From contig JAIOZK010000004.1 in NCBI GenBank assembly GCA_021740625.1, positions 100,316-164,315 of the forward strand: a stretch of 64,000 nt of DNA, read 5' to 3'. Below, one piece after another: positions 7,287 to 29,716 of this stretch; the first letter of the stretch is position 1; the number at the start of each line of letters is the position of its first letter. This DNA comes from Bacteroidales bacterium (lineage in GTDB: Bacteria > Bacteroidota > Bacteroidia > Bacteroidales > JAIOZK01). A program made the translations under genes and the position numbers. The notes under the pieces are model-generated. The model was not told the origin of the DNA. It searched no databases and worked only from the letters and a program-made list of their open reading frames with translations.

Positions 7287-7358
7287 TGATGATACGAAAG
7301 GTGAGTAAGGGATCAATCAGGAAGTTTGCAAGCAAAGTCCAGGACCAGTATTTTTTAT

Positions 7359-8636: not shown

Positions 8637-8779
8637 AAACGGTAATTAAAACATAAACAATTTGCAATAGTACTAATTTCTTTCATAGAAAAGAAAATTT
8701 CATCTTTATCTGTAGGGTTCAAATATGGCCGTCATTTGCGTTTTGCTCAGGGTGCACTTTTATTTGCTCTTGGTAATAG

Positions 8780-9640: not shown

Positions 9641-9701
9641 ATTTTATTTTTTTAATTTACCGGTACATGATGGCAATTAAAATCAAACCGGATCGGTCTT
9701 A

Positions 9702-10931
9702 TTACTTAAAGTGACCCAAAATCAATTTCTTAATTTCATACATTAAATCGTGCATTAATAAATTTTGTTCATTAAAAGGCCCCATGTCATTGGGTCCTTT
9801 GGAAAAATTCCAGCAGTTGGTTAAAACAAAAACTGTAAAGTCGTTTGCCGGATCCGAATAGCATTTAACGGAAATGCCTGTGCCGTCGCCACCATGACCG
9901 TAGCCCAGTTTTTTATAATGGAATAGCCCCATTCCATAGCCGCATGAGTTGATTTGCGAAGTTGGTACACAAGCCATCATATAATTGGTTACATATGACA
10001 TTTTAATACCGGCTTCACCGCTGAGCAGCAGCTTATAAAATTTGCTTAAATCGCGGGGAGAGCTTATGATGTTTCCTTCACCAACATTCGCGGACATGTT
10101 TTGTCTGGTCAAATTAATACACTCTCCCGAAAGCCAGCCCCATGATTCAACAAAAGGTTCTGGAATCGATTGTTCATTGCCCATATCCGGGAAACTGGTT
10201 TCTTTTAATTCAAGGGGGATAATGAATTCATCCTCCATAAACTGACGGTACGGTTTTCCGCTTACCCTTTCAATTATTTTCGCCAGTAGTTGATAGCCGC
10301 TGTTGGAGTATGACCAATCTTCACCAGGCGCAAATTCATACTTTTGATGGTCGCTGATATAAGAAGTCATCAGGTCGATCGTTACTGTAAATTCGGGATC
10401 TTTTGAAAAGATGCTGTCTAGGAATCTGCTACCATCAGGCTGATTTATAAGATCATACACTCCTGCCGTATGGTTAAGCAACTGCCAAATCGTAATTTGG
10501 TCTTTGAAGGGAATATCATAGTCTTCGGTATCTGGCAAGTATGGAATTTCTTTACCAGGGATCGGTTCAATAACCAGAGAATCAAAATGAAGCAGTCCTT
10601 TTTGATAAAGTAAAACAATACCCGCAGCGGTGAAAGATTTTGTGGTGCTTTGTCCGCGAAAATGAGTAGCTTCTGAAAAGTTATCATCAATACCTTTATG
10701 GCCGAATCCGCTTTCATTGCCGTGAATAACCCGAATAGCAAAACCACCGGGAAAACCAGGATATGCTGACAGGTAATCAGAATAAGTCTGGTTTGCTATT
10801 GCCTGTACCTTTTCATTGAATACATTGTTATCAGGTTGAATATCATCCTCATTTTTTTGACATGCTGACAGGATCACAAAAGCAACCAGCAAATTGATTA
10901 ATAAAGATCTAGATAATGGTGTTTTCTTCAT
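9702..10931 (-). CDS. Serine hydrolase of the beta-lactamase / penicillin-binding fold (class C-like), lipoprotein
   Basis: 409-aa ORF with a lipobox (ILSAC), an SxxK motif (QSTTKSF) and a YSN motif (WSYSNSGYQ). Confidence 0.8.
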   Translation of the reverse strand: MKKTPLSRSLLINLLVAFVILSACQKNEDDIQPDNNVFNEKVQAIANQTYSDYLSAYPGFPGGFAIRVIHGNESGFGHKGIDDNFSEATHFRGQSTTKSFTAAGIVLLYQKGLLHFDSLVIEPIPGKEIPYLPDTEDYDIPFKDQITIWQLLNHTAGVYDLINQPDGSRFLDSIFSKDPEFTVTIDLMTSYISDHQKYEFAPGEDWSYSNSGYQLLAKIIERVSGKPYRQFMEDEFIIPLELKETSFPDMGNEQSIPEPFVESWGWLSGECINLTRQNMSANVGEGNIISSPRDLSKFYKLLLSGEAGIKMSYVTNYMMACVPTSQINSCGYGMGLFHYKKLGYGHGGDGTGISVKCYSDPANDFTVFVLTNCWNFSKGPNDMGPFNEQNLLMHDLMYEIKKLILGHFK

Positions 10932-11215
10932 ATTCTTATTTTTTCCCAGGTATCTCCGGAAAGTTTTTCCTGAATTTCAATCGTAATATTCTTAAATGCT
11001 AAACCGAAAATTTCAAATTTGGAGTTCAAAATTTTTAATTTGTTTTTGATAACGACCGTATTGTGTATCTTTCAAAAATACTAAATATCTCCTAAATTAT
11101 CAGCCTGCTATTTTTATTGGAATAATTCATTTTGAGGGCTTCCTCATTGTATACCTTTTTCAGCATGCAGAAAAGTCTTTCCTTATCAGGAAACTAGGTA
11201 TGGATCTTCAGAATA

Positions 11216-11390
11216 TCAGCTATTTTTCGAAACTTCACAACTTCATTTTTTGAAACGGCAAACTTTAAAAGACTGACTTATTATGATCACAATTTATCAC
11301 AATCCAAGATGCAAGAAATCCAGGGCAGGCCTGCAATACCTCGAAGACAAGGGGGTGGATTTTGAAATCAGGCAATACCTGAAAAAGCCC
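11216..11390 (+). repeat. Left copy of a 175-bp direct repeat (173/175 identical to 23062-23236)
   Basis: Base-by-base comparison finds mismatches only at 11230/23076 and 11348/23194. Confidence 0.95.
11283..11390 (+). pseudogene. Orphan 5' fragment (first 36 codons) of the ArsC/Spx-family gene
   Basis: MITIYHNPRCKKSRAGLQYLEDKGVDFEIRQYLKKP is identical to the start of the intact gene at 23129. It then diverges and stops at about 11460. Confidence 0.85.
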
Positions 11391-11622
11391 ATGAAAAGTA
11401 AGAAAATTGATAAGTATCTATTAATGTGCGGGATAGTTATATCCAGGAACATTAAAAAGTAGCGAAAATCGGACTTTTCTACCTCAATGTGTCCGCAAAA
11501 CAAAAAAATCATTTAAATTTGACTGTGCAGGAAATTAGTAACAGTTTTTTGTGACATCTGAAAGCGAAAAATGGTGACTTTATGGACACACTCTAACTTA
11601 TATACTATTGACTAGTTTTTCG

Positions 11623-13629
11623 ATGAGGTGGGTTTCTGGAATATTATTTTTCTTTCTCTTCCTATTGAGTATTGCAGCATATGCACAATATTCAGAACAA
11701 GAAGAAATTGACAGTTTGCAAAAATTGTTGAAAATAGTTCCCGCCGACCTTAAACCAGAAGTACTTATTAAAATCTCAAAAAAACTTGAAAAGGATAGCA
11801 ATCGTCTTGCTGAAGGTTATGTAAGGAAAGCACTTGAAATATCCTTGCATAATGAGAACATTGCTGATATTGCAAGATGCAGATACCAATTGGCACGCAT
11901 TAAAATACTGCAAGATTCAACAGTGATAGCCAAATCGATACTTAACAAATTGATCAGGGAAATAAACTCCCTTATGGTTGATAATGAGTATTTGGAAAAA
12001 ACTCTGAATCATTACCTGGGTTCATCTTACTTAATGCGATCGTATCTTTACTCGCAAAATTCACATGATAGTCTTAAAGCATCGATTTTGGATTTACAAA
12101 AGGCCCTCGCAAAATTGGATAAAAATCAGGACCCTTTTCTTTTTGCCCTGGCCAGTGGGCTTATAGCCGATTACTACTTACAGCTTGATATTTCAGATCA
12201 TGGCATAAAAAACTATAATCTGTCTCTAATGCTTTACGATTCAATTTCCGAAAAGTATTTCCTATTGCCTGTTTTGATTGAAAAAGAAAAAAAAAGATTT
12301 GATATTTTAAAAAACTATCGACAAGAATGCCTGTTTTGTGAGAATATCATAGAAGCTGATTTCAGAAGTAAAATTAAAACAAATTTGGGCTTTGCTCATT
12401 TAAAAGATGGACATCATCAGATCTCGCTTAGCTATTTTAAACAGGTTTTTAAAGATGCCATACAAGATAAAGACCGGCAACTGCGAATTTGCGCCTCAAT
12501 AAATCTGGCTTTATTCCATATGAAAACCGGGCAATATGATGAGGCAGAGAATCATTTATCCAATGCTATAGTCATTGCACGTGAAGAAGGCTTTCACAAT
12601 TTGGAAACACAAGCCAGCTTGAACCTGGTTGATGTATACCTTGCAACACAGAAATACGATCTTGCTCAAAACATGCTAAGCACCATCAATTCAATAATTA
12701 ATACAAATGATTTCAATTGTCTTTTATCGAATTACTATACCAAATTAGGGGATCTGTACTTTGAGCTTGACAATAGGGCAAAAGCACTGGAATGCTACAA
12801 AAAAACATTTGATTCACTTGTGGAAAATAGAAATTTCTATTATCAGGCTTTATTGGCAAACAAAATTCACAGTATTTACGAGCAAAGAGGTGATTACAGC
12901 AAAGCCATGAAATATTACAAGCTGTATATTACTGCAAATGATGCTCTTATTTCCTTTCAGGATAAGACATCCATTATTAAAGAAGAGATCAGGCTGGAAA
13001 TTGATAATGCAGAATCGGAATTGGGAATAATGAGAAAAAATGAGAAACTAGCCAGACTTGAGTTGAAGCGCCGAAATTTTTTAGCTACTGCTTTTTCTAT
13101 TGGTTTTGCCGTATTCTGCCTGCTTTTATTCTTTATCTGGATGTTGCGCACTAGAAAGAAAAAAGCATACAATAAGCTGATGGAAAAAAACATTGCGCTT
13201 TTGAAATCATCAGAAAACAACAAAAAGACCAAAAACGATACCGGAAAGAATTCTGATATAAATCCTGAACTGGCTTCAGAGCTAAAAAAAGGCTTCGAAA
13301 AATTCATCTACCAGCAAAAGATCTATCTTAAACCAAATATTTCTCTTGATTCATTGGCAAAAAAACTTAACACAAACTCAAACTATTTGTCCAGATATAT
13401 TAATCAAACTTATCAAACAAACTTTACCGGATACCTCAATCAACTCAGGATCAGGTATGCACAAAATTTGGTGACAAAGAAGGAGTTCCAAAATTTCTCC
13501 ATAGAAGGTTTGGCCAAAGAAGTAGGTTACAAATCAAAATCAGTTTTCAATGTTGCTTTTAAGAAATATACAGGTGTAACACCCTCATTTTATATTAATT
13601 ATATCAAAGATAAAGAAGCAAAGAAATGA
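11623..13629 (+). CDS. Transmembrane one-component regulator: N-terminal signal/anchor, TPR-like repeats, coiled coil, TM helix, C-terminal AraC-type HTH (module A, regulator 1)
   Basis: The ORF runs 11608-13629; the likely start is ATG 11623 (MRWVSGILFFFLFLLSIAAYAQ). There is a TM segment FLATAFSIGFAVFCLLLFFIWML. The C-terminus LSRYINQTYQTNFTGYLNQLRIRYAQNLV...GYKSKSVFNVAFKKYTGVTPSFY is an AraC/XylS HTH. Confidence 0.85.
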   Translation: MRWVSGILFFFLFLLSIAAYAQYSEQEEIDSLQKLLKIVPADLKPEVLIKISKKLEKDSNRLAEGYVRKALEISLHNENIADIARCRYQLARIKILQDSTVIAKSILNKLIREINSLMVDNEYLEKTLNHYLGSSYLMRSYLYSQNSHDSLKASILDLQKALAKLDKNQDPFLFALASGLIADYYLQLDISDHGIKNYNLSLMLYDSISEKYFLLPVLIEKEKKRFDILKNYRQECLFCENIIEADFRSKIKTNLGFAHLKDGHHQISLSYFKQVFKDAIQDKDRQLRICASINLALFHMKTGQYDEAENHLSNAIVIAREEGFHNLETQASLNLVDVYLATQKYDLAQNMLSTINSIINTNDFNCLLSNYYTKLGDLYFELDNRAKALECYKKTFDSLVENRNFYYQALLANKIHSIYEQRGDYSKAMKYYKLYITANDALISFQDKTSIIKEEIRLEIDNAESELGIMRKNEKLARLELKRRNFLATAFSIGFAVFCLLLFFIWMLRTRKKKAYNKLMEKNIALLKSSENNKKTKNDTGKNSDINPELASELKKGFEKFIYQQKIYLKPNISLDSLAKKLNTNSNYLSRYINQTYQTNFTGYLNQLRIRYAQNLVTKKEFQNFSIEGLAKEVGYKSKSVFNVAFKKYTGVTPSFYINYIKDKEAKK

Positions 13630-15644
13630 AGATTGCTTTCAGGCTTTCGTTTATTAAAAAACTTTTATGCAATGTTCTTTGTGTAATGATTATTTCATTG
13701 CTGTCTGGAAAAACACAAAATAACAAAAGTCTGCAATATACTTCGGATAGTTTACTCAGACTTTCCAACCTGGTTCAGAATGATCTCAAGCCTGAAGTTT
13801 ACATTGAACTATCTGACCTTTTTCTCGACTCTGATCCGGCCAGGAGTGACAGCTTTGCACTACTGGCTATGGATTGGGCCCAATATAACAAAAACCTTCA
13901 TGATCAATTAAAAAGCCAATTTCAATTAGGCAAAATAAAATACAGGCAGCAAAATTTTATGGCGTCGAAAGATATTTTCAGGGAATGGATTGTACGATTT
14001 GGTTCTGCAAACAAAGAATTAAGGAAATCAACATTATTAATGAAAAAGCATGCAGAAGCAAACATATATCTGGCTGACATTCTTGGTAGAAATTCTGACA
14101 GTCTTTCAACTGCCATTGGGTACTCATTTTCATGCAATGAAATAGCAAAGAATATTCAGGATTCCTTTCTAATTGCAAGAAGTTGCTATTCCATTGGTGA
14201 GATTTCACGTAAATTATTTATGGTTGAAAGGGCCAATAAATACTTTATTAAATCAGCAGAAATATTTGAGAACCTTAAGTTGGAAGAGTATTTAACTAAG
14301 GCATATTATGGTTTGGCCTTAAATGACCGAGAAAATCTGGAGTATATTTACAAAACCTTACGGCAATATGAGAAGCTTGGAGACTCCGCCGGTATGGGAA
14401 ATTTCCTTGTTAGTATTGCCTATATTTCAGCATCGGTAGTAAGTTTTGAGGAAGCTGTTGCTTATTATGAAAAGGCATTTGAAATCTTCAGAAAAATCAA
14501 AAACACAAGAGGCCAGGCCCATGCCAGATTCAATCTGGCCGGGCATTATCACCGCAATGGATATTTAGAAAAGGCATTGAACCTAAACGAGGAAAATGTT
14601 AAGTTTTGCCTGGAAAATAATGATAAGCTTTTTTTGGCCTATAGCCTGAAAGATCTTGCAAACGAGCATAATTTACTTGGCAGAAGAGATTCGGCCTACT
14701 ATTACTATTCAATTCTCGACACTGTTTCCAATAAGCTTGGAAATCGCACTCCTTATGTGAGATATTTATGTGGTTATGCACGTTTGCGATGGTTCGACGG
14801 CAAACATAAAGAAGCCTTAAAGTATCTCGATAAAGCAAGCCAGGAAATTGAAAAACATGGTGTTTATTATTTCAGAAGAAAAGTTGCGAGCTACCGGTCT
14901 AAAGCATATGCCGGATTGGGAGATTACGAAAATGCACTCAAATTTTACAAAAGGAGTATACATGTAAGAGATTCATTTTTTAGCCGAACCAGAATGGATA
15001 AATTAACATCACAGCAAATTAGGTATGAGGCAGAAGAAATACTAAGCGAGCTGGAAATGCTGGAAAAAGATCAAGCTTTGAAAAAGGCTGAAATAAAACA
15101 AAAGAAACAATTTGCTTCTTTTTTGGGATTGGGTATGATAATGGTACTCTTGCTTGGACTTTATGTGGTATCTCAATATAGAAAAACCAGGCTTGCATAT
15201 AACAGTCTTATGGAAAAGAACTTGAAACAGCTTGATGAAAAAAAACCCCGGCATATAAACGGGATTAATAATGGGTTGAATGAAAAAATCTTTAGGGAAA
15301 TCCAGGAATCTCTAAAAAAATGTATCAGGCAAAAAGTTTTTCTCCAACCTGATATCAGTTTAAAAAAATTAGCAAAGCTGATGAAAACCAACTCAGCCTA
15401 TTTATCAAAATTCATTAATTTGAAATATGCCAAAAACTTTACAGCCTTTATAAATGAACTTAGAATAGCTGAAGCGCAGAAACTTCTGAATAAGGATGAG
15501 TTTCAGAATTATACTGTTGAAGGAATAGCACAAGAGGTAGGCTTTAAAACAAAATCTGTCTTTAATACGGCTTTTAAAAAGAATACTGGTGTTACACCTT
15601 CATTTTATTTCAATTATCTGAAAGAAAAAAAGACAAAAACTTGA
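13626..15644 (+). CDS. Transmembrane TPR-AraC one-component regulator (module A, regulator 2)
   Basis: 672-aa ORF whose start overlaps the upstream stop (ATGA). It has a TM segment FASFLGLGMIMVLLLGLYVV and a C-terminal AraC HTH (GFKTKSVFNTAFKKNTGVTPSFY). Confidence 0.85.
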   Translation: MKIAFRLSFIKKLLCNVLCVMIISLLSGKTQNNKSLQYTSDSLLRLSNLVQNDLKPEVYIELSDLFLDSDPARSDSFALLAMDWAQYNKNLHDQLKSQFQLGKIKYRQQNFMASKDIFREWIVRFGSANKELRKSTLLMKKHAEANIYLADILGRNSDSLSTAIGYSFSCNEIAKNIQDSFLIARSCYSIGEISRKLFMVERANKYFIKSAEIFENLKLEEYLTKAYYGLALNDRENLEYIYKTLRQYEKLGDSAGMGNFLVSIAYISASVVSFEEAVAYYEKAFEIFRKIKNTRGQAHARFNLAGHYHRNGYLEKALNLNEENVKFCLENNDKLFLAYSLKDLANEHNLLGRRDSAYYYYSILDTVSNKLGNRTPYVRYLCGYARLRWFDGKHKEALKYLDKASQEIEKHGVYYFRRKVASYRSKAYAGLGDYENALKFYKRSIHVRDSFFSRTRMDKLTSQQIRYEAEEILSELEMLEKDQALKKAEIKQKKQFASFLGLGMIMVLLLGLYVVSQYRKTRLAYNSLMEKNLKQLDEKKPRHINGINNGLNEKIFREIQESLKKCIRQKVFLQPDISLKKLAKLMKTNSAYLSKFINLKYAKNFTAFINELRIAEAQKLLNKDEFQNYTVEGIAQEVGFKTKSVFNTAFKKNTGVTPSFYFNYLKEKKTKT

Positions 15645-15750
15645 TCCCGACGCTTTATCAACGGATCATTAGAGTTTTTCTTGTTGGCTGGACCATATTG
15701 TTTAACGGTATAATATACGGTCAGTCCGAAACAAAGGAAAGCTTTTCTCA

Positions 15751-15861
15751 TTTGCTCATGAAGTAGGATACAAAAGCAAATCGGTTTTCAATTCAGCTTT
15801 TAAAAAATATACCGGTCTCACACCTTCGTTTTACCTAAATTATTTGAAAGAAAACCAATGA
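15751..15861 (+). pseudogene. Remnant of a third AraC-type regulator (last 36 codons only)
   Basis: Translates to FAHEVGYKSKSVFNSAFKKYTGLTPSFYLNYLKENQ*, matching the C-termini of the four neighbouring regulators. No upstream ORF precedes it. Confidence 0.8.
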
Positions 15862-15929
15862 ATTTTTCACCAATTTTCCGTCAGGTGAGCACACATTGAT
15901 ATCTATTGTATGTTATTGTTATACTGGAA

Positions 15930-15978
15930 TTTACGCCTGTTTAAATTCATAAATCCATACATCAAAAACTTGATTTTG
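15930..15978 (+). promoter_or_regulatory. Conserved promoter-proximal motif, copy 1 (candidate operator)
   Basis: TTTACGCCTGTTTAAATTCATAAATCCATACATCAAAAACTTGATTTTG is shared with 22298-22340 (-) and 30899-30938 (-). Confidence 0.6.
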
Positions 15979-15993
15979 CACATTTCAGTATCC

Positions 15994-16001
15994 TACTTTT
16001 A
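15994..16001 (+). promoter_or_regulatory. -7-like box (TACTTTTA) for the module A structural operon
   Basis: Near match to TAnnTTTG, about 21 nt downstream of the TTG inside the conserved motif and 43 nt upstream of the ATG at 16044. Confidence 0.4.
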
Positions 16002-16043
16002 CCTCAGGAATTAAACAAATGAAAAACTAAACCAAATATAAGA

Positions 16044-16613
16044 ATGCAGAATCACAAGTACATATTTCTACTTTTCATTGTAGCAACGATATGTGCTTGT
16101 GATCTGCATTTAATACCTGAAAACAAATACCTTGGGAAATTACCAGGAATTGCAGCACGATATAAGCATGAAATAAATCAGCTTAAGAACGAAGCCGAAG
16201 CCACAGACGACTTGAACAAGGCATACAAACTGATGAAGCATGCAGAAAAAAAAGAAAAACAGGCAAACCGGGAAATTGAACAAAACTGGGAATTAATGTC
16301 AAAACCTGTCAACTTGGCTTTTGAGCAAAAATCAATGGGTGAATTTGAAATTACCGGTTTAAAAATTTCTGAAGCGAAATACAATTACCTGGTTCTTGTA
16401 GCCACAGCCATTATTAAAAAAGGTAATACTCGTTTATTTGCCAATATAGTTGCCATCGATAAAAACGGAAAAACCCTGGGTGAATCATCGGTACTAATTT
16501 CAGAAAGAAATCCAAAAAAAGGAAAAGAGTGCAGTTTTTATGGGAGTTTGAAAAACCTTGATCAATTAAGTAATTTCAGAAAAATCAGATTCTTTAAAAA
16601 GCAAAAGCCCTGA
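16044..16613 (+). CDS. Hypothetical lipoprotein (189 aa); no counterpart in module B
   Basis: Lipobox-like VATICAC, a charged coiled-coil-like N-terminal half and a beta-rich C-terminal half. Confidence 0.7.
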   Translation: MQNHKYIFLLFIVATICACDLHLIPENKYLGKLPGIAARYKHEINQLKNEAEATDDLNKAYKLMKHAEKKEKQANREIEQNWELMSKPVNLAFEQKSMGEFEITGLKISEAKYNYLVLVATAIIKKGNTRLFANIVAIDKNGKTLGESSVLISERNPKKGKECSFYGSLKNLDQLSNFRKIRFFKKQKP

Positions 16614-16671
16614 AATCATGAAAAATAACCAAAACCAATATTAATATAAATCAAACTAAAATTTTAAAATT

Positions 16672-17082
16672 ATGAAAAAATTAAACATTTTATTCGGGAC
16701 ATTAATTGCAATTTCAATCCTTTTTTTTGCTGCCTGTGGCGGTGGCGGAGCCTCAGGAAATTCTCCCTCGGGAGTGGTAGACGAATATTATGATGCATTC
16801 CAATCAGGTGACTATGAAGGCATGGTTATGCTGTTTGAAGGCAGTGAATCCTTATCAGCCGACAAAATCAAAAAGAATGCTGAGATGTTCAAAATGGGTG
16901 AATCCCAGTTAGAAGCCAGGGGAGGTATCAAAAAATTCACAGTAACTGAAGAAGAAATCAATGATGCCGGTGATGCCGCCACATTAAAAATTAAAACCAT
17001 TTATGGAAATGGAGATGAAGCTGATTCGGAAATGAATCTGGTGAAAGTGAATGGCAAATGGAAATTTAAAAAGATGTTCTAA
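16672..17082 (+). CDS. Small lipoprotein, DUF4878-like (NTF2-like fold suspected)
   Basis: 136 aa with lipobox FFAACGGGG, GVVDEYYDAFQSGDYEGM near the N-terminus and VKVNGKWKF at the C-terminus. It is roughly 70 percent identical, by eye, to the product of 30418-30828. Confidence 0.8.
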   Translation: MKKLNILFGTLIAISILFFAACGGGGASGNSPSGVVDEYYDAFQSGDYEGMVMLFEGSESLSADKIKKNAEMFKMGESQLEARGGIKKFTVTEEEINDAGDAATLKIKTIYGNGDEADSEMNLVKVNGKWKFKKMF

Positions 17083-17100
17083 GCATTGCTTTGTTATAAA

Positions 17101-17134
17101 AGGGTGCGGGAAATTCTATTCTGCACCCTCTTTT
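17101..17134 (+). terminator. Hairpin plus T-tract after the DUF4878-like gene (possible attenuating terminator within the operon)
   Basis: AGGGTGC...GCACCCT followed by CTTTTAAA. Confidence 0.4.
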
Positions 17135-17147
17135 AAACAATAATTTT

Positions 17148-19034
17148 ATGCTGAAAAAGAAACATTACATATTATTTTTGAGTTTTATCCTTTGTGCATT
17201 TCTACCTCTGACGCAAAACAAAGCACAAAATATATGCTCTTACCGGGTTAACACCAACTTACACATTTATCAGATTGAAGGCTATGCTGCCAAAATCGAT
17301 CTTTCCCTAAATCCGCTTACTTACCCCGACACCATGAAAATAAACATCGTACAACACGATCCGGATGGAGAAGAATTGCTTGTAAAATCCTGGATCATTT
17401 ATCAAAAAGAAGAAATTAATGAATTCAATAAATCCACCCAAATACTGGTTTTTGAGGATATTGGTGGATCATTGAAAGCTTACGATAGCTGGAGGGCTTA
17501 TCAAAGCGGACTAAATGGAAAACAATTAATCAGGTGGGAAAAAAAGTCTTTCAGTGTGGAACTCAACATGACGGGTTATTTTACTGCCGACCTCTACCTG
17601 CTCAAAAATAACTCCTCATATAAAATTGCCGACAACTGGTTTCGCATTATCAGAAACAGCAATGGAACCGAAAAAAAGCCCTTGCTGGTGTCGAGCCAAT
17701 ATCTTTATATGATCGGAGATAGTGTAAAAGTTCATTATGCGTATTCTGATATGCCAAAGAACGCCATCATCAGGGTATACAAATACAATAAAGATGGCAA
17801 TGTTAAATATTACAAACGTGTAGCAAAAGGAAACAATTCATTCGAACTTTACAAGACGAATGTATCAGGAAGCGGTGATGGGACTTTCACCTTTTATCAG
17901 GCCGGCAACTTCGAAATCCGAGCTTACTTTTATAGTGATGATCCAAAAACAGTAGTGGCCGGTGAAAGATTTTACATCATGGAAAATCATCTTGCAGGAC
18001 ATGATATTCCGTACATTTCAACTTGTAAATATGTGAATACCATCACAGATGAGGACAATAGAATTAGGGTGATTTATAAAGGTTTTTCCGAAAATCCACT
18101 TGCAACTGTCCAAATGCAAAAATCAAAAGGGAATGGCGACAGTAAAACACTTGCCCATCAATTGCTTGGTGGAAAAGGAAAAACATATTTTAATTTACAT
18201 GGACCCGGAATTTACGAACTCAAAGTGTATTTTGAACAGGATAAAAAATACATAAGGACTGGTTGCAGGTTCTATGTTGAGCCTATACCAGGAACCCACA
18301 CTCCAAAGCCACGGGAAGACAAAAACGAGATTCCGAATTATACAGAGGCAATTCCAATTATTGAACCGGATTTTCCAACTTACTGTTTAAACGATGTAAT
18401 CAGAATGAATTACCACAGCCTTCCTCCCGGAAATAAGACAATTGAGCTTTTTTCGGGTCCGGATAGAGTTCAACTAAAATCTATCATTGAAAAAAATGGA
18501 TCCATCAGGTATTTAAACCTTAAGGAAGGGGTTTATAAAATGAATATTGTCGATTATAAAGGAAATCATATTACCCACAAAGAATTCAAAGTTTTTGATT
18601 GTAACAACGCACCTGAAAAGATAATTGAAACAAATCCAAAACAAAAACCCGAAATACCGGCATTTGATTGTCCTATGGTACACGACAACCAAATTCCTGC
18701 AAAAAGCTTTGCCAAAGAATTCATGCATTATTTTTATAATGATCACATTTGCTATTTGCAGGCAGGAATGGGCTTTGAGGCGTACAACAAGCTTTCAGAC
18801 AAAGAAAAGGAGCAATCACTTCAAATGGTCAAATTGCTGACACATAAAGTAAACACAAAATGGGGCGGACTGGATGAAATTATCAAAGTAAAAACATTGG
18901 AATCATCCAAAAACAAATATGTTTTTGAAATTATTATACGCTATAAGAATGGAAATACCGAAAAATTTGATGAGATAAGCGTTGAAAGGTATGGAAATTA
19001 TTGGCGGGGAAGCATGAATATAAAAGCATTTTAG
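17148..19034 (+). CDS. Secreted protein with about four Ig-like repeats and a C-terminal NTF2/DUF4878-like domain (628 aa); no counterpart in module B
   Basis: A signal peptide is followed by repeated blocks of about 90-110 aa that end in similar strands (FRIIRN, RFYIMEN, RFYVEP, FKVFD). The C-terminal 130 aa resemble the neighbouring small lipoprotein in pattern. Confidence 0.75.
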   Translation: MLKKKHYILFLSFILCAFLPLTQNKAQNICSYRVNTNLHIYQIEGYAAKIDLSLNPLTYPDTMKINIVQHDPDGEELLVKSWIIYQKEEINEFNKSTQILVFEDIGGSLKAYDSWRAYQSGLNGKQLIRWEKKSFSVELNMTGYFTADLYLLKNNSSYKIADNWFRIIRNSNGTEKKPLLVSSQYLYMIGDSVKVHYAYSDMPKNAIIRVYKYNKDGNVKYYKRVAKGNNSFELYKTNVSGSGDGTFTFYQAGNFEIRAYFYSDDPKTVVAGERFYIMENHLAGHDIPYISTCKYVNTITDEDNRIRVIYKGFSENPLATVQMQKSKGNGDSKTLAHQLLGGKGKTYFNLHGPGIYELKVYFEQDKKYIRTGCRFYVEPIPGTHTPKPREDKNEIPNYTEAIPIIEPDFPTYCLNDVIRMNYHSLPPGNKTIELFSGPDRVQLKSIIEKNGSIRYLNLKEGVYKMNIVDYKGNHITHKEFKVFDCNNAPEKIIETNPKQKPEIPAFDCPMVHDNQIPAKSFAKEFMHYFYNDHICYLQAGMGFEAYNKLSDKEKEQSLQMVKLLTHKVNTKWGGLDEIIKVKTLESSKNKYVFEIIIRYKNGNTEKFDEISVERYGNYWRGSMNIKAF

Positions 19035-19092
19035 CAGAATATAATATGGAAACGAAATACAATTTAATCATTAATCCCTAAAATCAATAATT

Positions 19093-19593
19093 ATGAAAAA
19101 ACATGCATTATTAAGTCTATCACTAATCGTTGTGTTTTGCTTTGCTTTCCTGGGCAGCGAAGCTATGCCGGAAAACGACAAACAGGTTCAGGTAAAGATC
19201 ACAAAAGTGGAAAGAAATGGAAAAGAGGTTATCGTCCATTTCCAATTAAAAAACACCGGAGATCCAATTGATCTGGCACTCAAGAACAATGATGGAAGCT
19301 ATGCTCTTGGAAAAAACGGTCGCAAGTACAAACTTAAAAAGCTGGTTATTGGAAACCAGAAATCGAGCAGGCTTGTGGGCAAAAGAAGCCAAAAACTAGA
19401 TAAAAACAAATCAATTAATGGTATGGCAATTTTTGACGTTCCGGATGAAACAAATGATTTTAAAGAGATAAAGATCTCAAGCAAAAACAAGTTTTCAGCC
19501 AAATTTAAAAATGTTAAAACCAAGGACAAAAAGCCTTCGCCTTCAAAGCGATTTAAACCCAGTTCAAAAAAGCTGGAAAAACCAAGAAAATAA
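19093..19593 (+). CDS. Small secreted/lipid-anchored beta-sandwich protein (DUF4352-like, tentative) with a lysine-rich tail
   Basis: 166 aa with a signal peptide, VQVKITKVERNGKEVIVHFQLKNTG and a C-terminal K/P/S-rich tail. Paralog of 29717-30217. Confidence 0.75.
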   Translation: MKKHALLSLSLIVVFCFAFLGSEAMPENDKQVQVKITKVERNGKEVIVHFQLKNTGDPIDLALKNNDGSYALGKNGRKYKLKKLVIGNQKSSRLVGKRSQKLDKNKSINGMAIFDVPDETNDFKEIKISSKNKFSAKFKNVKTKDKKPSPSKRFKPSSKKLEKPRK

Positions 19594-19620
19594 TTTAATA
19601 TTAACCTAAACCAAATTTCA

Positions 19621-20142
19621 ATGGAAAAAAATGAAACAATTAAATCGGTAACAATGATTTTATCCGGATCGCTCCTTCAGATGTTTAACGGGATTGGTAA
19701 TGGATGGATTTCAACGCTAACTGCCATATTCGGCTTAATACTGCTGTTTATGGGATTAAGTAAACTTAAAAGAGGCATTGATGAAGCCGGGCAGGGTGCT
19801 GTAAAATTGCTTATCATTGCGGCAGTGCTTGGTATCATCGGTTTGATCCTTGATCTGATCCCATTGGTAGGCATCGTGGCCTCAATCGTCTTTATCGTCG
19901 CATTTATTGTACAATTAATTGGTGTATTAAAGCTGAAAAAATCAGAAACCATCGGTGAATCGGGTAAAAGTGGTGTAACCTTACTCCTAATTGCCATGAT
20001 ATTGGCAATTTTACAAAGTATAGTGGGCTTTGTTCCTTTTGCCGGTGGAATAGTGGCTGGAATTATTTCGCTGGTGGCCCTCATACTTTTGTTTTTCGGG
20101 TGGCTCAGAATTCAGGATGGAATTATCATCAATAATCCCTAA
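19621..20142 (+). CDS. Small polytopic membrane protein (173 aa, about 5 TM) with an internal two-helix duplication
   Basis: Roughly 85 percent aa identity, by eye, to the product of 29167-29688 despite heavy synonymous divergence. Internal repeat: LSKLKRGIDEAGQGAVKLL... versus VLKLKKSETIGESGKSGVTLL... Confidence 0.85.
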   Translation: MEKNETIKSVTMILSGSLLQMFNGIGNGWISTLTAIFGLILLFMGLSKLKRGIDEAGQGAVKLLIIAAVLGIIGLILDLIPLVGIVASIVFIVAFIVQLIGVLKLKKSETIGESGKSGVTLLLIAMILAILQSIVGFVPFAGGIVAGIISLVALILLFFGWLRIQDGIIINNP

Positions 20143-20163
20143 TTGAAATTTTCTCACTAAAAG

Positions 20164-20196
20164 AAGGCTAGCTTATTATAAGGTAGCCTTTTTTTT
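20164..20196 (+). terminator. Bidirectional hairpin terminator between convergent genes
   Basis: AAGGCTA...TAGCCTT followed by a T-run. Confidence 0.6.
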
Positions 20197-20210
20197 AAGC
20201 AATCCAGAAA

Positions 20211-21101
20211 TTAAAAACCAAGTTCTTTTATGAGTTTCTTGGCACCACTATCTTCCAGAGAAATGCATATCAATTCTTTCCCCGCTTCAAAAGATTGAAA
20301 TATTTCTTTTTCACCGTCATTTACTTTACAATTTGAAAAATTTTCACCTTCAACATTCAATACGGTAACTTTCCCAATTTCTTTTTCGCGCCTCATTCCG
20401 GCCAAAATTGAAACTTCCACAACTTTAAATTTATCACCTTTGTTAATTCCAAATTTTTCTCCAGCGGCAATCAGAACCTCTCTCGCTTTATCTCTTTTCT
20501 CATCGGTTATTTCAACAAGCAAAATGTCCAAAGGAAAATATCTTTGGATAAATATTTCCACTTTGTAATCCAGCGATTTTAAATAATCAAGCAAAGCTTC
20601 ATTGTATGATTTTTCGCTGTAGCCGGTTTCTTTAATGACCTCTGTTCCGATTATGCTACTATCGGCGACATTTATTGCGGTAATGACAAACTGCATACCA
20701 ACCTGATATTGGGTATACGTTCGTTCTCCTCCGCCGATTTGTTTGGAAGTAACGTTTTTACTATCTGTAATGATCCCTGTAATATCGCCCTTAATAATGT
20801 AATCAGCTCCCAAAGATTTTAAAACCTCATACCGGCTAAAGGTATTTACTTCCAGAGTGTCATTCTCTTTCTGAGCCAGAGCATTCTCTAGCGCATCTTC
20901 CATGACCTTTTTTTCAATCACATTGAATCTGTTGGTTTTGATAAAGGCATTGTAAACTGCTTCCCGCAGTTTCTGTCCAACCTCTGCCGGAATATTTTCA
21001 TCCCACCCAAACTTATCGATTGCGAGGTTTTCTTTTTGAGTTTGGGCATTCAGGGGAACAATGAAAAAAATCACCCATGTAAATAATAATAACTTTCTCA
21101 T
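20211..21101 (-). CDS. Periplasmic protein with a CsgG/LpoB-like N-terminal domain (tentative)
   Basis: 296 aa with a signal peptide. The pattern IDKFGW...LREAVYNAFIKTNRFNVIEKKVMEDALE resembles CsgG/LpoB-type domains. The C-terminal half is beta-rich. Confidence 0.65.
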   Translation of the reverse strand: MRKLLLFTWVIFFIVPLNAQTQKENLAIDKFGWDENIPAEVGQKLREAVYNAFIKTNRFNVIEKKVMEDALENALAQKENDTLEVNTFSRYEVLKSLGADYIIKGDITGIITDSKNVTSKQIGGGERTYTQYQVGMQFVITAINVADSSIIGTEVIKETGYSEKSYNEALLDYLKSLDYKVEIFIQRYFPLDILLVEITDEKRDKAREVLIAAGEKFGINKGDKFKVVEVSILAGMRREKEIGKVTVLNVEGENFSNCKVNDGEKEIFQSFEAGKELICISLEDSGAKKLIKELGF

Positions 21102-21142
21102 AATGTTATGTTTTGGTTTTGGTTATTTTGGATCTCAATTCA

Positions 21143-22225
21143 TTAATAGAAATAGTTTCTCCAAATATAAGTGAATATTGTGGAGATAAAGTGCTCAGAT
21201 GCATCAAAATCTGAGGTCAATCGAAGGCTGATGTCCGGATCAACAAATTCCTGACTTTGTTGATCTTTAATATATACTTTGCAAGTCCTGACACCCATTG
21301 CGTCATCGGATTTCAACTCCTGCATTTTAACCACCACCAGAACATCTTCTTTCTCAATATTTCCAGGTTTAACCGGATTTGGAACATTGGGGTTGGTCAT
21401 ACCTTGTTCTACCATCTCGATTTCATTAAGAATAGCGGCAATATTTTCACGCTCCAACACCTTCAAACCGGGAATTTTAGAAAACATGCGTGTTAATTTT
21501 GCTTGAATTCCCTTCAAAAGACTTTGGCATCTATTATCATCCTCACATCCATCTATGATTACGGCAACTGCATCCCGTTCAGGCTTTTCAGCAGTATAGT
21601 GTGTTGGTGTAATATTTACATGTATGCATTGAGTCCTGTTGTTAAATTTATCTCTATCAACCCCAACCATATGTTGTACAGTGGTTTTGCTAACTGCCCG
21701 CCAAACAAGATGTTCAAGTTTGTCCCAGGTTACACTGTTTATTATGGTTTCCTCGGGATTTGAGCGGTATCGTCCTCCCTTATACGGGATATTCTCAAAG
21801 CTGCAGGAAGCAATTTTCATTTCCTCTACATGTGCTTTTTCCCTGTTTGGAACACTGTATCTTACATAGGAATAATCGATATCGATGTTATTAATGCTTT
21901 TGCGGTCTTCTGAAAGCGTACCATAAAAAGAAGCAATCTCCTCTGCTACTGACTGCTTATTTATTTTCATTCCACTAAAATCATTGCCATCAAGACGCAT
22001 GTCATTCACACTAAAATAAAAGCCAAGGACTGTATTATATTCATCCCGAATTTTCCTGACATTTCCGTTACTGAACTTTTTTGTCTTAACTATTTCTTTC
22101 ACTTTTGACGGTACACTAACCGTAATATAACATTTTCGAAATTCAGCTTGAGCGAATCCATAGATTTGAAAAAAAAATGCATTTAAGAAAATCAAAGTGA
22201 ATAAAAATCGGAATTGTGTTTTCAT
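21143..22225 (-). CDS. Secreted hypothetical protein with a C-terminal CsgG-like segment (tentative)
   Basis: 360 aa with a signal peptide. AVAVIIDGCED...KIPGLKVLERENIAAILNEIEMVEQG resembles the CsgG-family core motif. Confidence 0.65.
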   Translation of the reverse strand: MKTQFRFLFTLIFLNAFFFQIYGFAQAEFRKCYITVSVPSKVKEIVKTKKFSNGNVRKIRDEYNTVLGFYFSVNDMRLDGNDFSGMKINKQSVAEEIASFYGTLSEDRKSINNIDIDYSYVRYSVPNREKAHVEEMKIASCSFENIPYKGGRYRSNPEETIINSVTWDKLEHLVWRAVSKTTVQHMVGVDRDKFNNRTQCIHVNITPTHYTAEKPERDAVAVIIDGCEDDNRCQSLLKGIQAKLTRMFSKIPGLKVLERENIAAILNEIEMVEQGMTNPNVPNPVKPGNIEKEDVLVVVKMQELKSDDAMGVRTCKVYIKDQQSQEFVDPDISLRLTSDFDASEHFISTIFTYIWRNYFY

Positions 22226-22268
22226 TATGATTATTGGTTTTTATTTATAAAATTGTGTTTGATGATTC

Positions 22269-22276
22269 CAAAATTA
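22269..22276 (-). promoter_or_regulatory. -7 promoter box (TAATTTTG on the minus strand) for the 22225-20211 operon
   Basis: Exact TAnnTTTG match 43 nt upstream of the start at 22225, downstream of conserved motif copy 2. Confidence 0.5.
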
Positions 22277-22297
22277 CATATTCAGAAAGCTTCAATA

Positions 22298-22340
22298 CAA
22301 ATATTTGTTGTATGAATTTATGAATTTAAACAAGCGTAAA
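22298..22340 (-). promoter_or_regulatory. Conserved promoter-proximal motif, copy 2
   Basis: The minus strand reads TTTACGCTTGTTTAAATTCATAAATTCATACAACAAATATTTG, matching copy 1 at most positions. Confidence 0.6.
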
Positions 22341-22569
22341 CAGTTGATTTTATTCTTTTTGAGAATAATATACAATAAGTCGACTTTTGAAAGTATAATT
22401 AACATAAAAATGACTTAACTTAGAAACTTTTATCTTGTATATGGGTTTTATCATTTAAACAAACTAAAATCAAAGAACCAATGGTTTTCGCGGTATATGG
22501 AGGCATAGCAATGATTTGCGACTTTATAATATTACTGTTTTTTTAACAAAATTTGTTGTAACCACATGC

Positions 22570-22606
22570 AATTAAAACAAAAACACACCCTTGCTGGCGT
22601 GTGTTT
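22570..22606 (-). terminator. Intrinsic terminator downstream of the acyltransferase remnant
   Basis: The minus strand reads AAACACAC-loop-GTGTGTTT followed by TTGTTTTAATT. Confidence 0.55.
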
Positions 22607-22688
22607 GTGCCTAAATTCCGTAAGTCTCGGGGTAACTTATTCATTTATCAAAAATCAAAAAAAAGTAACCCCAACTCAAACTTTAGTT

Positions 22689-22929
22689 TTAAGTTAAGCC
22701 CGTTCCGTTTTCAACATTTTTCACAAGCTCATAAATATACCTGGCCATATCCGCACCGTCAACAACATCATGATCCATTAAAACTGTCATGTTCATGATA
22801 TCTCTTATCTGGATTTGTTTGCCAATTACCCTGGGTTTTTGAATGAACCGGTTCCAGAAAACTGCTCACATGATGTTTGCGCTTACCCATTTCGCAAACA
22901 TCAATGCTTACAATGCGGGAGGCAGGGAA
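22689..22929 (-). pseudogene. 3' remnant of a 2-oxoacid dehydrogenase E2-type acyltransferase-like gene, frameshifted
   Basis: The minus strand encodes ...VIGKQIQIRDIMNMTVLMDHDVVDGADMARYIYELVKNVENGTGLT*, which carries the DHxxxDG catalytic motif context. The upstream part (VSIDVCEMGKRKHHV) is in another frame, and no N-terminal two thirds is present. Confidence 0.5.
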
Positions 22930-23061
22930 TAAGTTCGTATTAAGTATTTATTAACCGCAAAGCGCGCAACCTACTTGCAAAGAGCGAAAAGAATTTGATT
23001 TGCTTATAACCTTATTACAACTCCAGGGATCAATTCGTGATATTTGCGGTGGAGTCTTTTT

Positions 23062-23236
23062 TCAGCTATTTTTCGTAACTTCACAACTTCATTTTTTGAA
23101 ACGGCAAACTTTAAAAGACTGACTTATTATGATCACAATTTATCACAATCCAAGATGCAAGAAATCCAGGGCAGGCCTGCAATACCTCGAAGATAAGGGG
23201 GTGGATTTTGAAATCAGGCAATACCTGAAAAAGCCC
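23062..23236 (+). repeat. Right copy of the 175-bp direct repeat
   Basis: See 11216-11390. Confidence 0.95.
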
Positions 23237-23470
23237 CTGAGCAAAGATGAATTGAAAAGCTTGCTGACCAAAATGAACAAAAAACCCCATGACATCATCC
23301 GCACGCAGGAGGAAAAGTACCGCAAGGAGTTGAAAGGAAAGAATTTTTCGGATGAGGAATGGATCAGCATCCTGGTGGAGAACCCCAAACTGATGCAACG
23401 ACCCATCGTGGAAAAAGAATACAAGGCTGTCCTTGCCCAGCCACCCGAAAATATTGACGAACTTCTATAA
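23129..23470 (+). CDS. ArsC/Spx/YffB-family protein (arsenate reductase-like thioredoxin fold)
   Basis: 113 aa. The N-terminal IYHNPRCKKSR carries the conserved Cys context, and PKLMQRPIV is also present. Confidence 0.85.
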   Translation: MITIYHNPRCKKSRAGLQYLEDKGVDFEIRQYLKKPLSKDELKSLLTKMNKKPHDIIRTQEEKYRKELKGKNFSDEEWISILVENPKLMQRPIVEKEYKAVLAQPPENIDELL

Positions 23471-29166: not shown

Positions 29167-29688
29167 TTATGAATTATTGATGATAATACCATCCTGGATT
29201 TTTAGCCATCCGAAAAATACCAGGATCAGGGCTATGAATGAAATAATTCCGGCAATAATACCACCTGCCAGGGGAACAAAACCGAAAATACTCTGAATAA
29301 TTGCCAGGATCATGGCAATGAGTAGCAGGGTTACCCCACTTTTTCCGCTTTCGCCGATGCTTTCGGAACTTTTCAGCTTTATCACACCTATCAATTGAAC
29401 GATGAAAGCAGCGATAAATACGATAGAAGCCACAATGCCAATCAGCGGGATCAGATCGAGGACGAGGCCAATGAGACCCAAGATAGCAGCTATGATCAGC
29501 ATCTTAACCGCAGCTTGTCCTTTTTCATCGATGCCCTTTTTGAGTTTACTCAGACCCATGAAAAACAGAATCAATCCGAAAATGGCTGTCAAGGTGGAAA
29601 TCCATCCGTTACCAATGCCATTGAACATTTGTAAGAGCGAACCCGATAAAATAAAGGTTACTGATGTAATTGTTTCTTTTTTTTCCAT
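29167..29688 (-). CDS. Small polytopic membrane protein, paralog of 19621-20142 (module B)
   Basis: 173 aa, same length as its paralog, with roughly 85 percent aa identity by eye. Confidence 0.85.
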   Translation of the reverse strand: MEKKETITSVTFILSGSLLQMFNGIGNGWISTLTAIFGLILFFMGLSKLKKGIDEKGQAAVKMLIIAAILGLIGLVLDLIPLIGIVASIVFIAAFIVQLIGVIKLKSSESIGESGKSGVTLLLIAMILAIIQSIFGFVPLAGGIIAGIISFIALILVFFGWLKIQDGIIINNS

Positions 29689-29716
29689 TGTAAATTTGGT
29701 TTAGGTTAATATTAAG

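Follow-up and report, generated by a model that had tools for sequence, protein, structure and literature searches.

How did an 11.7-kb block of AT-rich DNA come to lie at the start of an arsC-family gene, between two nearly identical direct repeats? The question is raised by a chromosomal locus of an uncultured Bacteroidales bacterium, analysed here in a window of 64,000 nt (assembly GCA_021740625.1, contig JAIOZK010000004.1). An earlier, sequence-only reading of the window had taken the block for inserted foreign DNA or for a duplication-mediated capture, with three options for its present state: decayed, mobilised in trans, or excisable by recombination between the repeats.

The left copy of the repeat (11216..11390, + strand) and the right copy (23062..23236, + strand) are identical at 173 of 175 positions and differ at 11230 (A/T) and 11348 (C/T). 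The ungapped match extends to 179 nt with three mismatches. Each copy comprises 67 nt from upstream of arsC, including its promoter region, and codons 1–36. The orthologous region of the two closest species is only 81% and 73% identical to the repeat, so the likeness of the two copies lies beyond chance. The duplication is real, and it takes in part of the locus: the arsC promoter and the first 36 codons. The left copy has the derived alleles A11230 and C11348. The right copy keeps T23076, the state found in the outgroups L007 and L008, while the derived state of the left copy is shared by the sister strain L087. At strain-level divergence, the probability of two or more differences in 175 nt is 0.17–0.25; the number is also compatible with a resident duplication followed by drift.

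The right copy runs on into the intact arsC-family gene (23129..23470, + strand), which encodes 113 aa of the glutaredoxin-type arsenate reductase family. This ORF matches NCBIfam TIGR00014 (arsC) at 121.2 bits, against a cut-off of 106.05, and Pfam ArsC at E = 1.2e-14. The family match is full-length and the N-terminal catalytic Cys motif HNPRCKKSR is present. The interrupted gene is assigned to the ArsC family on these matches, and arsenate reductase activity is predicted. The left copy ends in a truncated arsC' ORF of 59 codons (11283..11462, + strand), consisting of 36 arsC codons and 23 unrelated ones, with no arsC likeness beyond 11390. The earlier description of two 175-bp copies with two differences, each of 67 bp plus 36 codons, the right one leading into an intact 113-aa gene and the left one diverging after codon 36 and soon reaching a stop, is thus borne out in every part, the differing positions included.

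The two edges of the repeat are unlike each other. The right edge is abrupt: in local alignment, the DNA 3' of 11390 scores 21 against arsC, compared with 17.9 ± 2.3 for shuffled sequences. An old full-length arsC paralogue homogenised by gene conversion was rejected as a candidate, as residual arsC homology to the right of the left copy does not rise above the shuffles. The left edge is the point where the arsC promoter stops aligning with L007 and L008, and some 20 nt of weaker similarity persist upstream of it in the window and in both outgroups. This pattern would fit two alleles of one promoter and not a random staggered cut. The right copy has an L007-like upstream patch, which the resident allele, that of the left copy and L087, lacks. 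A possible TGA microhomology lies 1 nt beyond the joint 11390/11391.

Both repeat copies are spanned by an independent NCBI MAG contig, JAIOZP010000017.1, with 99.985% identity to the window, and ENA contigs of other samples have the same structure. Logan unitigs (k = 31) end or start at 11260, 11361, 23106 and 23207, which are the positions of the SNPs or boundaries ± 30 nt, or exactly k-1 from each. In the ENA sample ERZ10759773, contigs break at the 55-mer just 5' of the SNP at 11348. Every one of these sources is a metagenome assembly, assessed at the level of contigs and unitigs, and this is the argument for a mis-join of one repeat copy or in the placement of the segment. The unitigs nevertheless break exactly as a true repeat predicts and an independent contig spans the structure, and the assembly artefact that the sequence-only reading had named as its refutation is therefore essentially refuted.

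A sister strain shows the locus in its single-copy state. Its ENA contig, L087, matches the window from 2784 to 11394 at 99.57% and then continues with 135 nt identical to 23237–23371. The gene order is prfB, ASST, T9SS protein, beta-lactamase-fold gene, a single repeat copy, and intact arsC, and no bases besides strain SNPs are lost or gained relative to the window flanks. This is the empty site that had been proposed as a check, with the beta-lactamase-fold gene adjoining an intact arsC. It is represented by one contig, with a coverage of 4.35x, which ends 135 nt beyond the repeat. The C allele at 11348 lies 43 nt from the point of divergence in L087, and the L087 path could therefore not have come out of a k = 55 graph built from the occupied state only. 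Both repeat SNPs of L087 are of the left-copy type, and the crossover, whether in integration or deletion, is therefore confined to the last 42 of the 175 nt; the prior probability of this is about 24%, which counts against the explanation preferred below. The 11.7-kb block thus appears to be carried by some strains of the species, with at least one strain lacking it.

Lineage L097, which is 0.55% diverged, is also occupied and has an identical left junction. The segment with this junction is hence present in two lineages about 0.5% apart, and L087 shares 13 of 17–18 SNPs with the occupied sister lineage. Because of this shared junction and this grouping, the single-copy state of L087 suggests a secondary deletion as likelier than a pre-insertion condition.

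The AT-rich DNA is not confined to the space between the repeats, as had been assumed, although its AT-richness itself holds. It begins at 7287, just after prfB. An older accessory block (7287..11215, - strand), present in occupied and empty strains alike, contains an ASST-like gene (7359–8636), a gene for a T9SS-sorted protein (8780–9640), and a beta-lactamase-fold/AmpH-like gene (9702–10931). The GC content of this block is 0.354 and that of the segment 0.350, compared with 0.43–0.44. In GC and tetranucleotide usage, a comparison that the earlier reading had suggested, the segment matches other accessory stretches. Among 42 relatives with prfB upstream of arsC, the gap between the two is at most 300 bp in 33; the other nine have unrelated genes there. 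Since prfB normally lies within 300 bp of arsC across Bacteroidota, the whole of 7287–23061 is, on synteny, lineage-specific AT-rich cargo at a variable spot, with the left repeat inside it. By the same comparison, prfB and arsC were ancestrally adjacent, and the ASST, T9SS and beta-lactamase-fold genes were likewise inserted between them. In many Bacteroidota lineages, this spacer takes up unrelated cargo. Orthologues of the beta-lactamase-fold gene (77% identity) were also considered as evidence on the site; their contexts are unrelated and therefore uninformative.

The strain-variable segment between the repeats (11391..23061) is 11,671 nt long and is absent from L087. Its first genes are regulator A1 (11608..13629, + strand), which has a signal peptide, TPR, one transmembrane helix, and an AraC HTH, and regulator A2 (13626..15644, + strand) with the same architecture. 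They are paralogues of B1 (34% aa) and B2 (38% aa), respectively. The 3'-end remnant of a third AraC-HTH gene follows (~15706..15861, + strand), with 76–79% nt identity to the ends of A1, A2, B1, and B2. The + strand then carries genes for a predicted lipoprotein of 189 aa with no family match (16044..16613), a DUF4878 lipoprotein of 136 aa (16672..17082), a near-orphan secreted protein of 628 aa (17148..19034), a lysine-rich secreted protein of 166 aa (19093..19593), and a multi-pass membrane protein of 173 aa (19621..20142). The 628-aa protein has only four distant relatives among 1.84 billion representatives. The - strand carries genes for a secreted protein of 296 aa with a weak LpoB/CsgG-like N-terminal domain (20211..21101) and a secreted protein of 360 aa with no family match (21143..22225), which has a premature stop in an ENA sister strain. 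Two copies of a 43-nt element, 88% identical to each other, lie upstream of the 189-aa lipoprotein gene (15930..15972, + strand) and of the 360-aa gene (22298..22340, - strand). The last feature is the frameshifted 3' remnant of a 2-oxoacid dehydrogenase acyltransferase-type gene (2-oxoacid_dh; 22692..22947, - strand), after which a terminator-like hairpin is found at 22583–22602. This remnant and that of the AraC-HTH gene are the two gene remnants that had been noticed from the letters.

Five genes of the segment recur in the same order in cluster B (29167..35058, - strand), an inverted old paralogue 6 kb downstream with about 72% nt identity. At the protein level, the cluster B copies are 69% identical to the DUF4878 lipoprotein, 57% to the lysine-rich protein, and 86% to the multi-pass membrane protein. 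The genes for the 189-, 628-, 296- and 360-aa proteins and the dehydrogenase remnant have no counterpart in cluster B. Cluster B is absent at this position in L007, and no flanking repeats were found around it. Support for distantly foreign DNA or a decayed mobile element is lacking: five genes are same-order paralogues of a resident cluster, the composition is like that of accessory DNA, and the segment has no terminal inverted repeats.

A search for mobility functions bears out the earlier statement that the block lacks an integrase, a transposase and a tRNA. Among all ORFs of at least 100 aa in 7287–23470, scanned against Pfam, NCBIfam, and PHROGs, there is no integrase or recombinase of the tyrosine, serine or DDE type, and no transposase, relaxase, excisionase, oriT-type, or transfer/mobilisation gene. 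Stop-to-stop ORFs of the three longest intergenic gaps (11391–11680, 15600–16080, and 22200–23140) contain AraC and 2-oxoacid_dh fragments only, and no recombinase fragments. No tRNA or Rfam element occurs across 6–36 kb, defence and phage searches (PADLOC, PHROGs) gave just generic TPR and HTH matches, and neither terminal inverted repeats nor further repeats occur at the segment ends. Insertion of a transposon or IS was rejected, given the lack of a transposase and of inverted repeats at the ends, and a duplication of 175 nt against the short 2–14 bp expected.

The donor of the segment was also sought. Among 80 arsC loci of relatives, the 2-oxoacid_dh remnant has no match; comparison of the segment ends and upstream flanks with all loci turned up chance matches only. 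A donor-type arrangement, with the segment upstream of arsC and no bla-arsC' block, is found in no assembly. Among contigs carrying the arsC' ORF or regulator A1, none has a circle junction; each either has the left junction of the integrated state or breaks off within the repeat. A search of 5.8 billion proteins gave close relatives of the 628-aa protein and of regulator A1 in this species only, and neither the 628-aa protein nor a 42-nt repeat sequence had a match when metagenomes were scanned.

The structure is best explained by general recombination, and not by a site-specific recombinase: a Campbell-type single crossover in the promoter and 5' end of arsC, together with one illegitimate joint at 11390/11391. 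The chance that this explanation is correct is put at somewhat better than even. The starting material would be a fragment from a closely related strain with different cargo upstream of arsC, running from 11391 through the regulator and envelope cluster and the dehydrogenase remnant to codon 36 of arsC. The fragment would have been circularised by one illegitimate joint, which is seen in the sequence as 11390/11391. The circle would then have integrated by a single homologous crossover within approximately 175 nt common to it and to the promoter and 5' end of the resident arsC. Such an event necessarily gives direct repeats, an intact promoter-bearing arsC at the right, and a truncated arsC' at the left, and all three are seen. 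The repeat duplicates the target locus, the target is otherwise unchanged relative to L087, and the repeat, with 98.9% identity over its 175 nt, is of sufficient length for RecA-type recombination between hybrid-compatible copies. The left promoter copy now points into the first regulator gene, so that a duplicate of the arsC promoter faces two membrane-anchored AraC regulators, and it could rewire their expression. No terminator-like site was found between the arsC' ORF and the next gene, and a sigma-70 promoter scan is uninformative for Bacteroidota promoters. On this model, the insertion predates the split of at least two lineages that are about 0.5% apart. Recombination between the repeats could later delete the segment, and L087 has the single-copy state with an intact arsC. 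Excision by recombination between the repeats is the one of the three earlier options that fits best. Points against the explanation are that neither a donor-type arrangement nor a circle junction was found in the assemblies, and that a single low-coverage contig represents the empty site.

The same structure is predicted by a circle with a single crossover and by one-sided homologous and illegitimate recombination. The latter could also have acted with the roles reversed, on a resident that already had the cluster upstream of arsC. An incoming linear prfB-ASST-T9SS-bla-arsC'(1–36) piece from an L087-like strain would have crossed over homologously in or to the left of prfB, and its broken right end, at arsC codon 36/37, would have been joined illegitimately at 11391, so that the repeat would represent two strain alleles of the arsC start. 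This gives the final structure with a single illegitimate joint and no circle, and accounts for the exact L087 alleles of the left copy and for the coincidence of the left repeat edge with the end of promoter conservation. However, no strain has been seen with prfB directly before the cluster and without bla-arsC', the SNPs that L087 shares with the occupied sister lineage are easier to explain if L087 arose by deletion, and reports describe homology-facilitated illegitimate recombination (HFIR) as very rare, with demonstrations for inserts of about 1 kb. These points make the reversed course unlikely.

A decayed or satellite integrative island, with a replacement arsC promoter and 5' end as the sequence-only reading had proposed, and a tyrosine or serine recombinase that was lost or is encoded elsewhere and acts inside the repeat, seems rather improbable. 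End repeats at a gene end, a single-copy empty site in a sister strain, AT-rich cargo, and two pseudogene remnants are what such an island would show, and the integrase-less 13-kb H47 island of E. coli, mobilised by host functions, is a precedent (PMC3191183, PMC5426353). Against it, recombinase, excisionase, relaxase, oriT-type, transfer, and phage genes are all lacking, as are recombinase fragments in the three longest gaps. No related element was found in the protein and metagenome searches and no spread to other genomes was seen, the cargo is paralogous to a neighbouring resident cluster, and the cargo of relatives at this site also lacks integrases. The paralogy itself, with five genes ordered as in cluster B, would favour an origin within the genome, by insertion of a cluster B copy into arsC with a long target duplication left by replication-based repair or staggered breaks; drift following a resident duplication could also account for two differences in 175 nt. 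The identity of about 72% between the clusters, compared with 98.9% between the repeats, means that the two events were not contemporaneous. The segment also has four genes and a dehydrogenase remnant that cluster B lacks, and the right copy has the outgroup allele and the L007-like patch that are missing from the resident allele. An intragenomic origin is thus quite improbable.

The preferred reading, Campbell-type integration, has known counterparts. When linear DNA is circularised in E. coli, a single crossover that depends on RecA integrates it, with duplication of 109–950 bp of the homologous locus (PMC3240628). Campbell-type integration of suicide plasmids and circularised DNA shares with the present locus the flanking duplication, the lack of target loss, the lack of an element recombinase, and reversibility (PMC3240628). 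In contrast, the insert of the present case occurs naturally in the chromosome of an uncultured Bacteroidales and is 11.7 kb long; the circle and a role of RecA would be presumed for it, and the homologous stretch includes a promoter and gene start, so the target gene stays functional. HFIR is known from S. pneumoniae, A. baylyi, and P. stutzeri (reviewed in PMC3240628). It resembles this locus in having one homologous anchor, one illegitimate joint, and no mobility genes, and in acting between related genomes that differ locally. In classical HFIR, an insertion goes together with a deletion of about 1 kb and the joint has 3–10 bp of microhomology, whereas the segment here measures 11.7 kb and no resident DNA is lost relative to L087.

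The H47 island is 13 kb in size, its repeats are att-like sites present in many E. coli strains, and its excision was experimentally RecA-independent (PMC3191183, PMC5426353). The similar size, the extensive imperfect direct repeats, and the lack of an encoded recombinase are common to both. H47 is excised by host functions, leaving hybrid single-copy sites, whereas excision here is suggested by L087 alone. The repeat here differs in being part of a housekeeping-type gene and its promoter, and no spread to other sites or species was seen. Integrase-encoding islands, ICEs, and IMEs likewise have AT-rich cargo, vary in presence between strains, and have direct repeats at a gene end, with the element-proximal copy restoring the target. 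Unlike them, the segment has no integrase, excisionase, transfer or mobilisation gene, or tRNA, its repeat is long and near-identical instead of a short core, and its cargo is paralogous to neighbours.

The locus is a clean natural case in which strains of an uncultured Bacteroidales lineage gain and lose a gene block without mobile-element machinery; the occupied and single-copy states were both recovered from public assemblies. It represents tidy but ordinary genome flux, most likely by homologous recombination, and opens no long-standing question. Several cautions follow for similar loci. Direct repeats, AT-rich cargo, and an empty site do not alone indicate an integrative element. Repeat-bounded "islands" are to be checked against deeper synteny, as the true variable region here is the whole prfB-arsC spacer. 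Unitigs of k = 31 are blind to such deletion junctions if the diagnostic SNP is more than k from the breakpoint.

A bolder reading, considered unlikely, is that of an active, recombinase-free hitch-hiking island, which would use the 175-nt arsC start as a portable homology arm, exit as a circle, and integrate anew at arsC in any strain of the species while leaving that gene unharmed. If it were true, two transmembrane TPR-AraC regulators would fall under the duplicated arsC promoter.

The two repeat copies, at 11216-11390 and 23062-23236, share 173 of their 175 positions and differ at 11230 (A/T) and 11348 (C/T); the ungapped match between them reaches 179 nt. Each copy comprises 67 nt 5' of the ATG and 36 codons. 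The right copy reads on into a 113-aa protein, which passes the NCBIfam arsC equivalog (121 bits versus a cut-off of 106) and also matches Pfam ArsC. The left copy enters unrelated sequence and reaches a stop after 59 codons (the truncated ORF arsC', 11283-11462). No residual arsC similarity is present to the right of 11390 (local score 21 versus 17.9 +/- 2.3 for shuffles), so the right edge of the left copy is a true breakpoint. Against the two nearest species the 175-nt repeat has just 81% and 73% identity, and the 98.9% between the copies thus reflects a recent within-lineage relationship, not conservation. The repeat pair, including its two SNPs and the intact 113-aa gene on the right, is as the sequence-only reading described it.

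An assembly artefact is ruled out as the source of the repeat by a MAG contig, Logan unitig ends, and ENA contig breaks. The MAG contig JAIOZP010000017.1 (GCA_021740545.1; 26,962 bp) contains both copies and everything between them at 99.985% identity to the window. In the Logan (k=31) unitigs of SRR12088349 and SRR12088348, those of the left copy end at 11260 (SNP 11230 + 30) and start at 11361 (11391 - 30), and those of the right copy end at 23106 (SNP 23076 + 30) and start at 23207 (23237 - 30), which is the pattern that a real two-copy repeat with both SNPs must give. The ENA assembly ERZ10759773 has a contig that ends at 11347 and a second one that begins at 11293; together these mark the 55-mer node immediately preceding the C/T SNP.

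An empty site with a single repeat copy and the beta-lactamase-fold gene (bla) directly beside arsC had been predicted, and was found in L087 (ENA contig NODE_12012 of ERZ10759774, 8,742 bp, coverage 4.35). L087 matches window 2784-11394 at 99.57% identity with 37 mismatches, followed by 135 nt identical to 23237-23371. The contig carries, in order, prfB, an arylsulfotransferase-like gene (ASST), a T9SS-sorted protein gene, bla, a single repeat copy, and intact arsC, with zero bases lost or gained; the repeat alleles are of the left-copy type (A, C). The distance from C11348 to the point of divergence is only 43 nt, and k=55 edges are seen in the sister assembly, so a path with C and then the arsC continuation is impossible in a graph of the occupied haplotype only. 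L087 is one low-coverage contig ending soon after the repeat, and is probably a genuine empty site.

The occupied state, with an identical left junction, is also found in ERZ10759773, in contigs covering window 7250-11347 (L106), 11293-14554 (L097, 99.45% identity), and 18934-21502 (L103). Fragments of the segment between the repeats (11391-23061) also occur in ERZ10759799 and ERR6290779. Of the 17-18 sites at which L106, from this occupied-state sample, and the empty L087 each differ from the window, 13 are common to both; the two contigs differ from each other at 9 of 4,098 sites. Between-lineage divergence is 0.55% in the segment, similar to the 0.42% of the backbone. Most simply, under a rough clock, the segment would already have been present in the common ancestor, and L087 would represent a secondary, precise deletion between the repeats. 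It is also possible that either state moved between lineages via flanking homology. Loss of the segment by recombination between the repeats, as earlier proposed, holds with the single-copy L087.

The proposal that the repeats bound the AT-rich accessory island does not stand, as AT-rich lineage-specific DNA already begins after prfB at 7287. GC content is 0.350 between the repeats, 0.354 in 7287-11215, and 0.371 in 28965-35173, versus 0.43-0.44 elsewhere, and tetranucleotide deviation is equal in degree across these three stretches. The DNA left of the repeat contains the ASST, T9SS-sorted protein, and beta-lactamase-fold/AmpH-like genes, all on the minus strand. An ArsC scan of the genome collection returned 80 loci of relatives; prfB lies upstream of arsC on the same strand in 42, with a gap of <=300 bp in 33 of these. 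The close spacing is seen from Bacteroidales through to Flavobacteriales, and fumC usually follows arsC. Within the window, 15.8 kb separate the end of prfB (7286) from the start of arsC (23129); all of it is therefore lineage-specific, and it includes the left repeat copy. Unrelated cargo occupies the same spacer in several Bacteroidota lineages (L027 6325-10001, L011, L015, L023, L028, L053, L067), including a conserved 475-aa protein of unknown function, glnK-amt-NrtR, and a HAD hydrolase; that of the outgroup L008 (866-10000) comprises a TPR histidine kinase, a LytTR regulator, and an 1806-aa PMP-repeat protein. No integrase was found beside the spacer cargo of these other lineages. The pattern suggests that insertions recur at this spot without integrases. 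The window's prfB has the canonical programmed +1 frameshift site CTTTGAC at 6257-6263, preceded by AGGGGG, and the 298-aa ORF at 6390-7286 is merely the second frame of release factor 2.

The segment of this uncultured Bacteroidales encodes two regulators, each combining a signal peptide with TPR repeats, a single transmembrane helix, and an AraC HTH, and retains the 3' remnant of a third TPR-AraC-type regulator gene. It also encodes a 189-aa lipoprotein, a DUF4878 lipoprotein, a 628-aa secreted near-orphan (17148-19034), a 166-aa lysine-rich protein, and a 173-aa multi-pass membrane protein. The strand opposite to the regulators carries genes for a 296-aa LpoB/CsgG-like protein and a secreted 360-aa protein, and a 2-oxoacid dehydrogenase acyltransferase-type gene remains as a frameshifted 3' remnant followed by a terminator-like hairpin. 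Genes for an integrase, transposase, or relaxase, proteins of phage or defence type, tRNAs, Rfam families, and terminal inverted repeats are all absent. The earlier description of envelope and regulatory genes with two remnants, and without integrase, transposase, or tRNA, was correct. Among 1.84 billion representative proteins the 628-aa protein has just four relatives, all of them distant, and its last ~130 residues form a separate module common to a 399-aa and a 1000-aa protein. A 43-nt element occurs at 15930-15972 (+) and 22298-22340 (-), upstream of the 189-aa and 360-aa genes and in like orientation relative to each; its copies are 88% identical and the only two in the window, with zero expected by chance. 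The neighbouring AraC regulators may use it as a common promoter or operator. In the sister strain the 360-aa gene has a premature TAG (TAT to TAG; L103 ~225-232, window ~21275, ~4.9x coverage), which is either cargo decay or a low-coverage error. The segment is in decay, with two remnants and, in one strain, this premature stop.

Five segment genes are paralogues, in kept order, of an inverted cluster at 29167-35058 (34-86% aa, ~72% nt). This cluster B (28965-35173, minus strand) contains two TPR-AraC regulators, a DUF4878 protein, a 180-aa protein, and a 173-aa protein. It is missing at the equivalent position in L007, the closest complete genome, in which its flanking genes lie directly side by side in divergent orientation, and no flanking repeats surround it. 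Cluster B is a second lineage-specific insertion of the same cluster family. Given the same-order paralogy and similar composition, the cargo looks like a fast-evolving native gene-cluster family and not distant-donor DNA. A foreign mobile element as its source is thus not upheld, the composition being like that of other accessory stretches.

Further features lie to the right of the repeats. A PF05635 gene ('23S rRNA intervening sequence protein', four-helix bundle) at 23482-23877 separates arsC from fumC in the window, and does so otherwise only in L007 (80% aa) and L008 (41% aa); no match to it was found in the 40-odd other relatives with fumC downstream of arsC. A 173-aa ORF (25467-25988) between fumC and a PMT-family gene has no family match, is missing in L007, and is unrelated to the window's two other 173-aa proteins. 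Two 281-aa paralogues (42% aa; 36278-37123 and 37580-38425) lie on either side of a 140-aa gene, an arrangement kept in L007 and in the relative L011. The strongest tetranucleotide outlier of the window is ~44000-48000 (correlation with the core 0.65-0.79), which has normal GC.

The left repeat edge is the point where the arsC promoter regions of L007 and L008 also cease to align with the window. Beyond that edge, ~20 nt of weaker similarity are still found on the upstream side of both copies and of L007. The right copy has T23076 and a TTT patch in common with L007; at these positions the left copy and L087 read A and CAGAATA. The 1% divergence within the repeat versus heavy divergence just outside suggests that the two repeats are alleles of a single promoter, derived from haplotypes that carried different cargo upstream; this mosaic does not point to a random staggered-cut duplication. 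The right edge of the repeat is a single illegitimate joint. A circularised fragment could have integrated through a single crossover (Campbell-type), which would place the insert between duplicated target stretches, leave the target sequence complete, and need no recombinase. In E. coli such integration is RecA-dependent, with a homologous-locus duplication of 109-950 bp (PMC3240628), and Campbell-type integration is the known process yielding exactly the product seen here, with duplicated target flanks, no target loss, and no recombinase.

Possibly, an incoming prfB...bla-arsC'(1-36) fragment was instead anchored by left-side homology and illegitimately joined at 11391, in one step, which yields the same structure as the circle. 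By either route, divergent haplotypes would have undergone general recombination at a variable spot. Action in trans by a site-specific recombinase is possible and has a precedent in the E. coli H47 island (PMC3191183, PMC5426353), but the data here lack specific support for it. The sequence-only interpretation stands in part: the empty site, the lack of mobility genes, and loss via the repeats are retained, and the island boundaries and the foreign mobile element are not. The event is a further example of an already known type.

After the insertion, arsC would retain a promoter and its full reading frame. The left promoter copy faces the first TPR-AraC regulator, which lies 145 nt past the arsC' stop, with no terminator-like hairpin between the two. 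This makes it plausible that the first TPR-AraC regulator has captured the arsC promoter.
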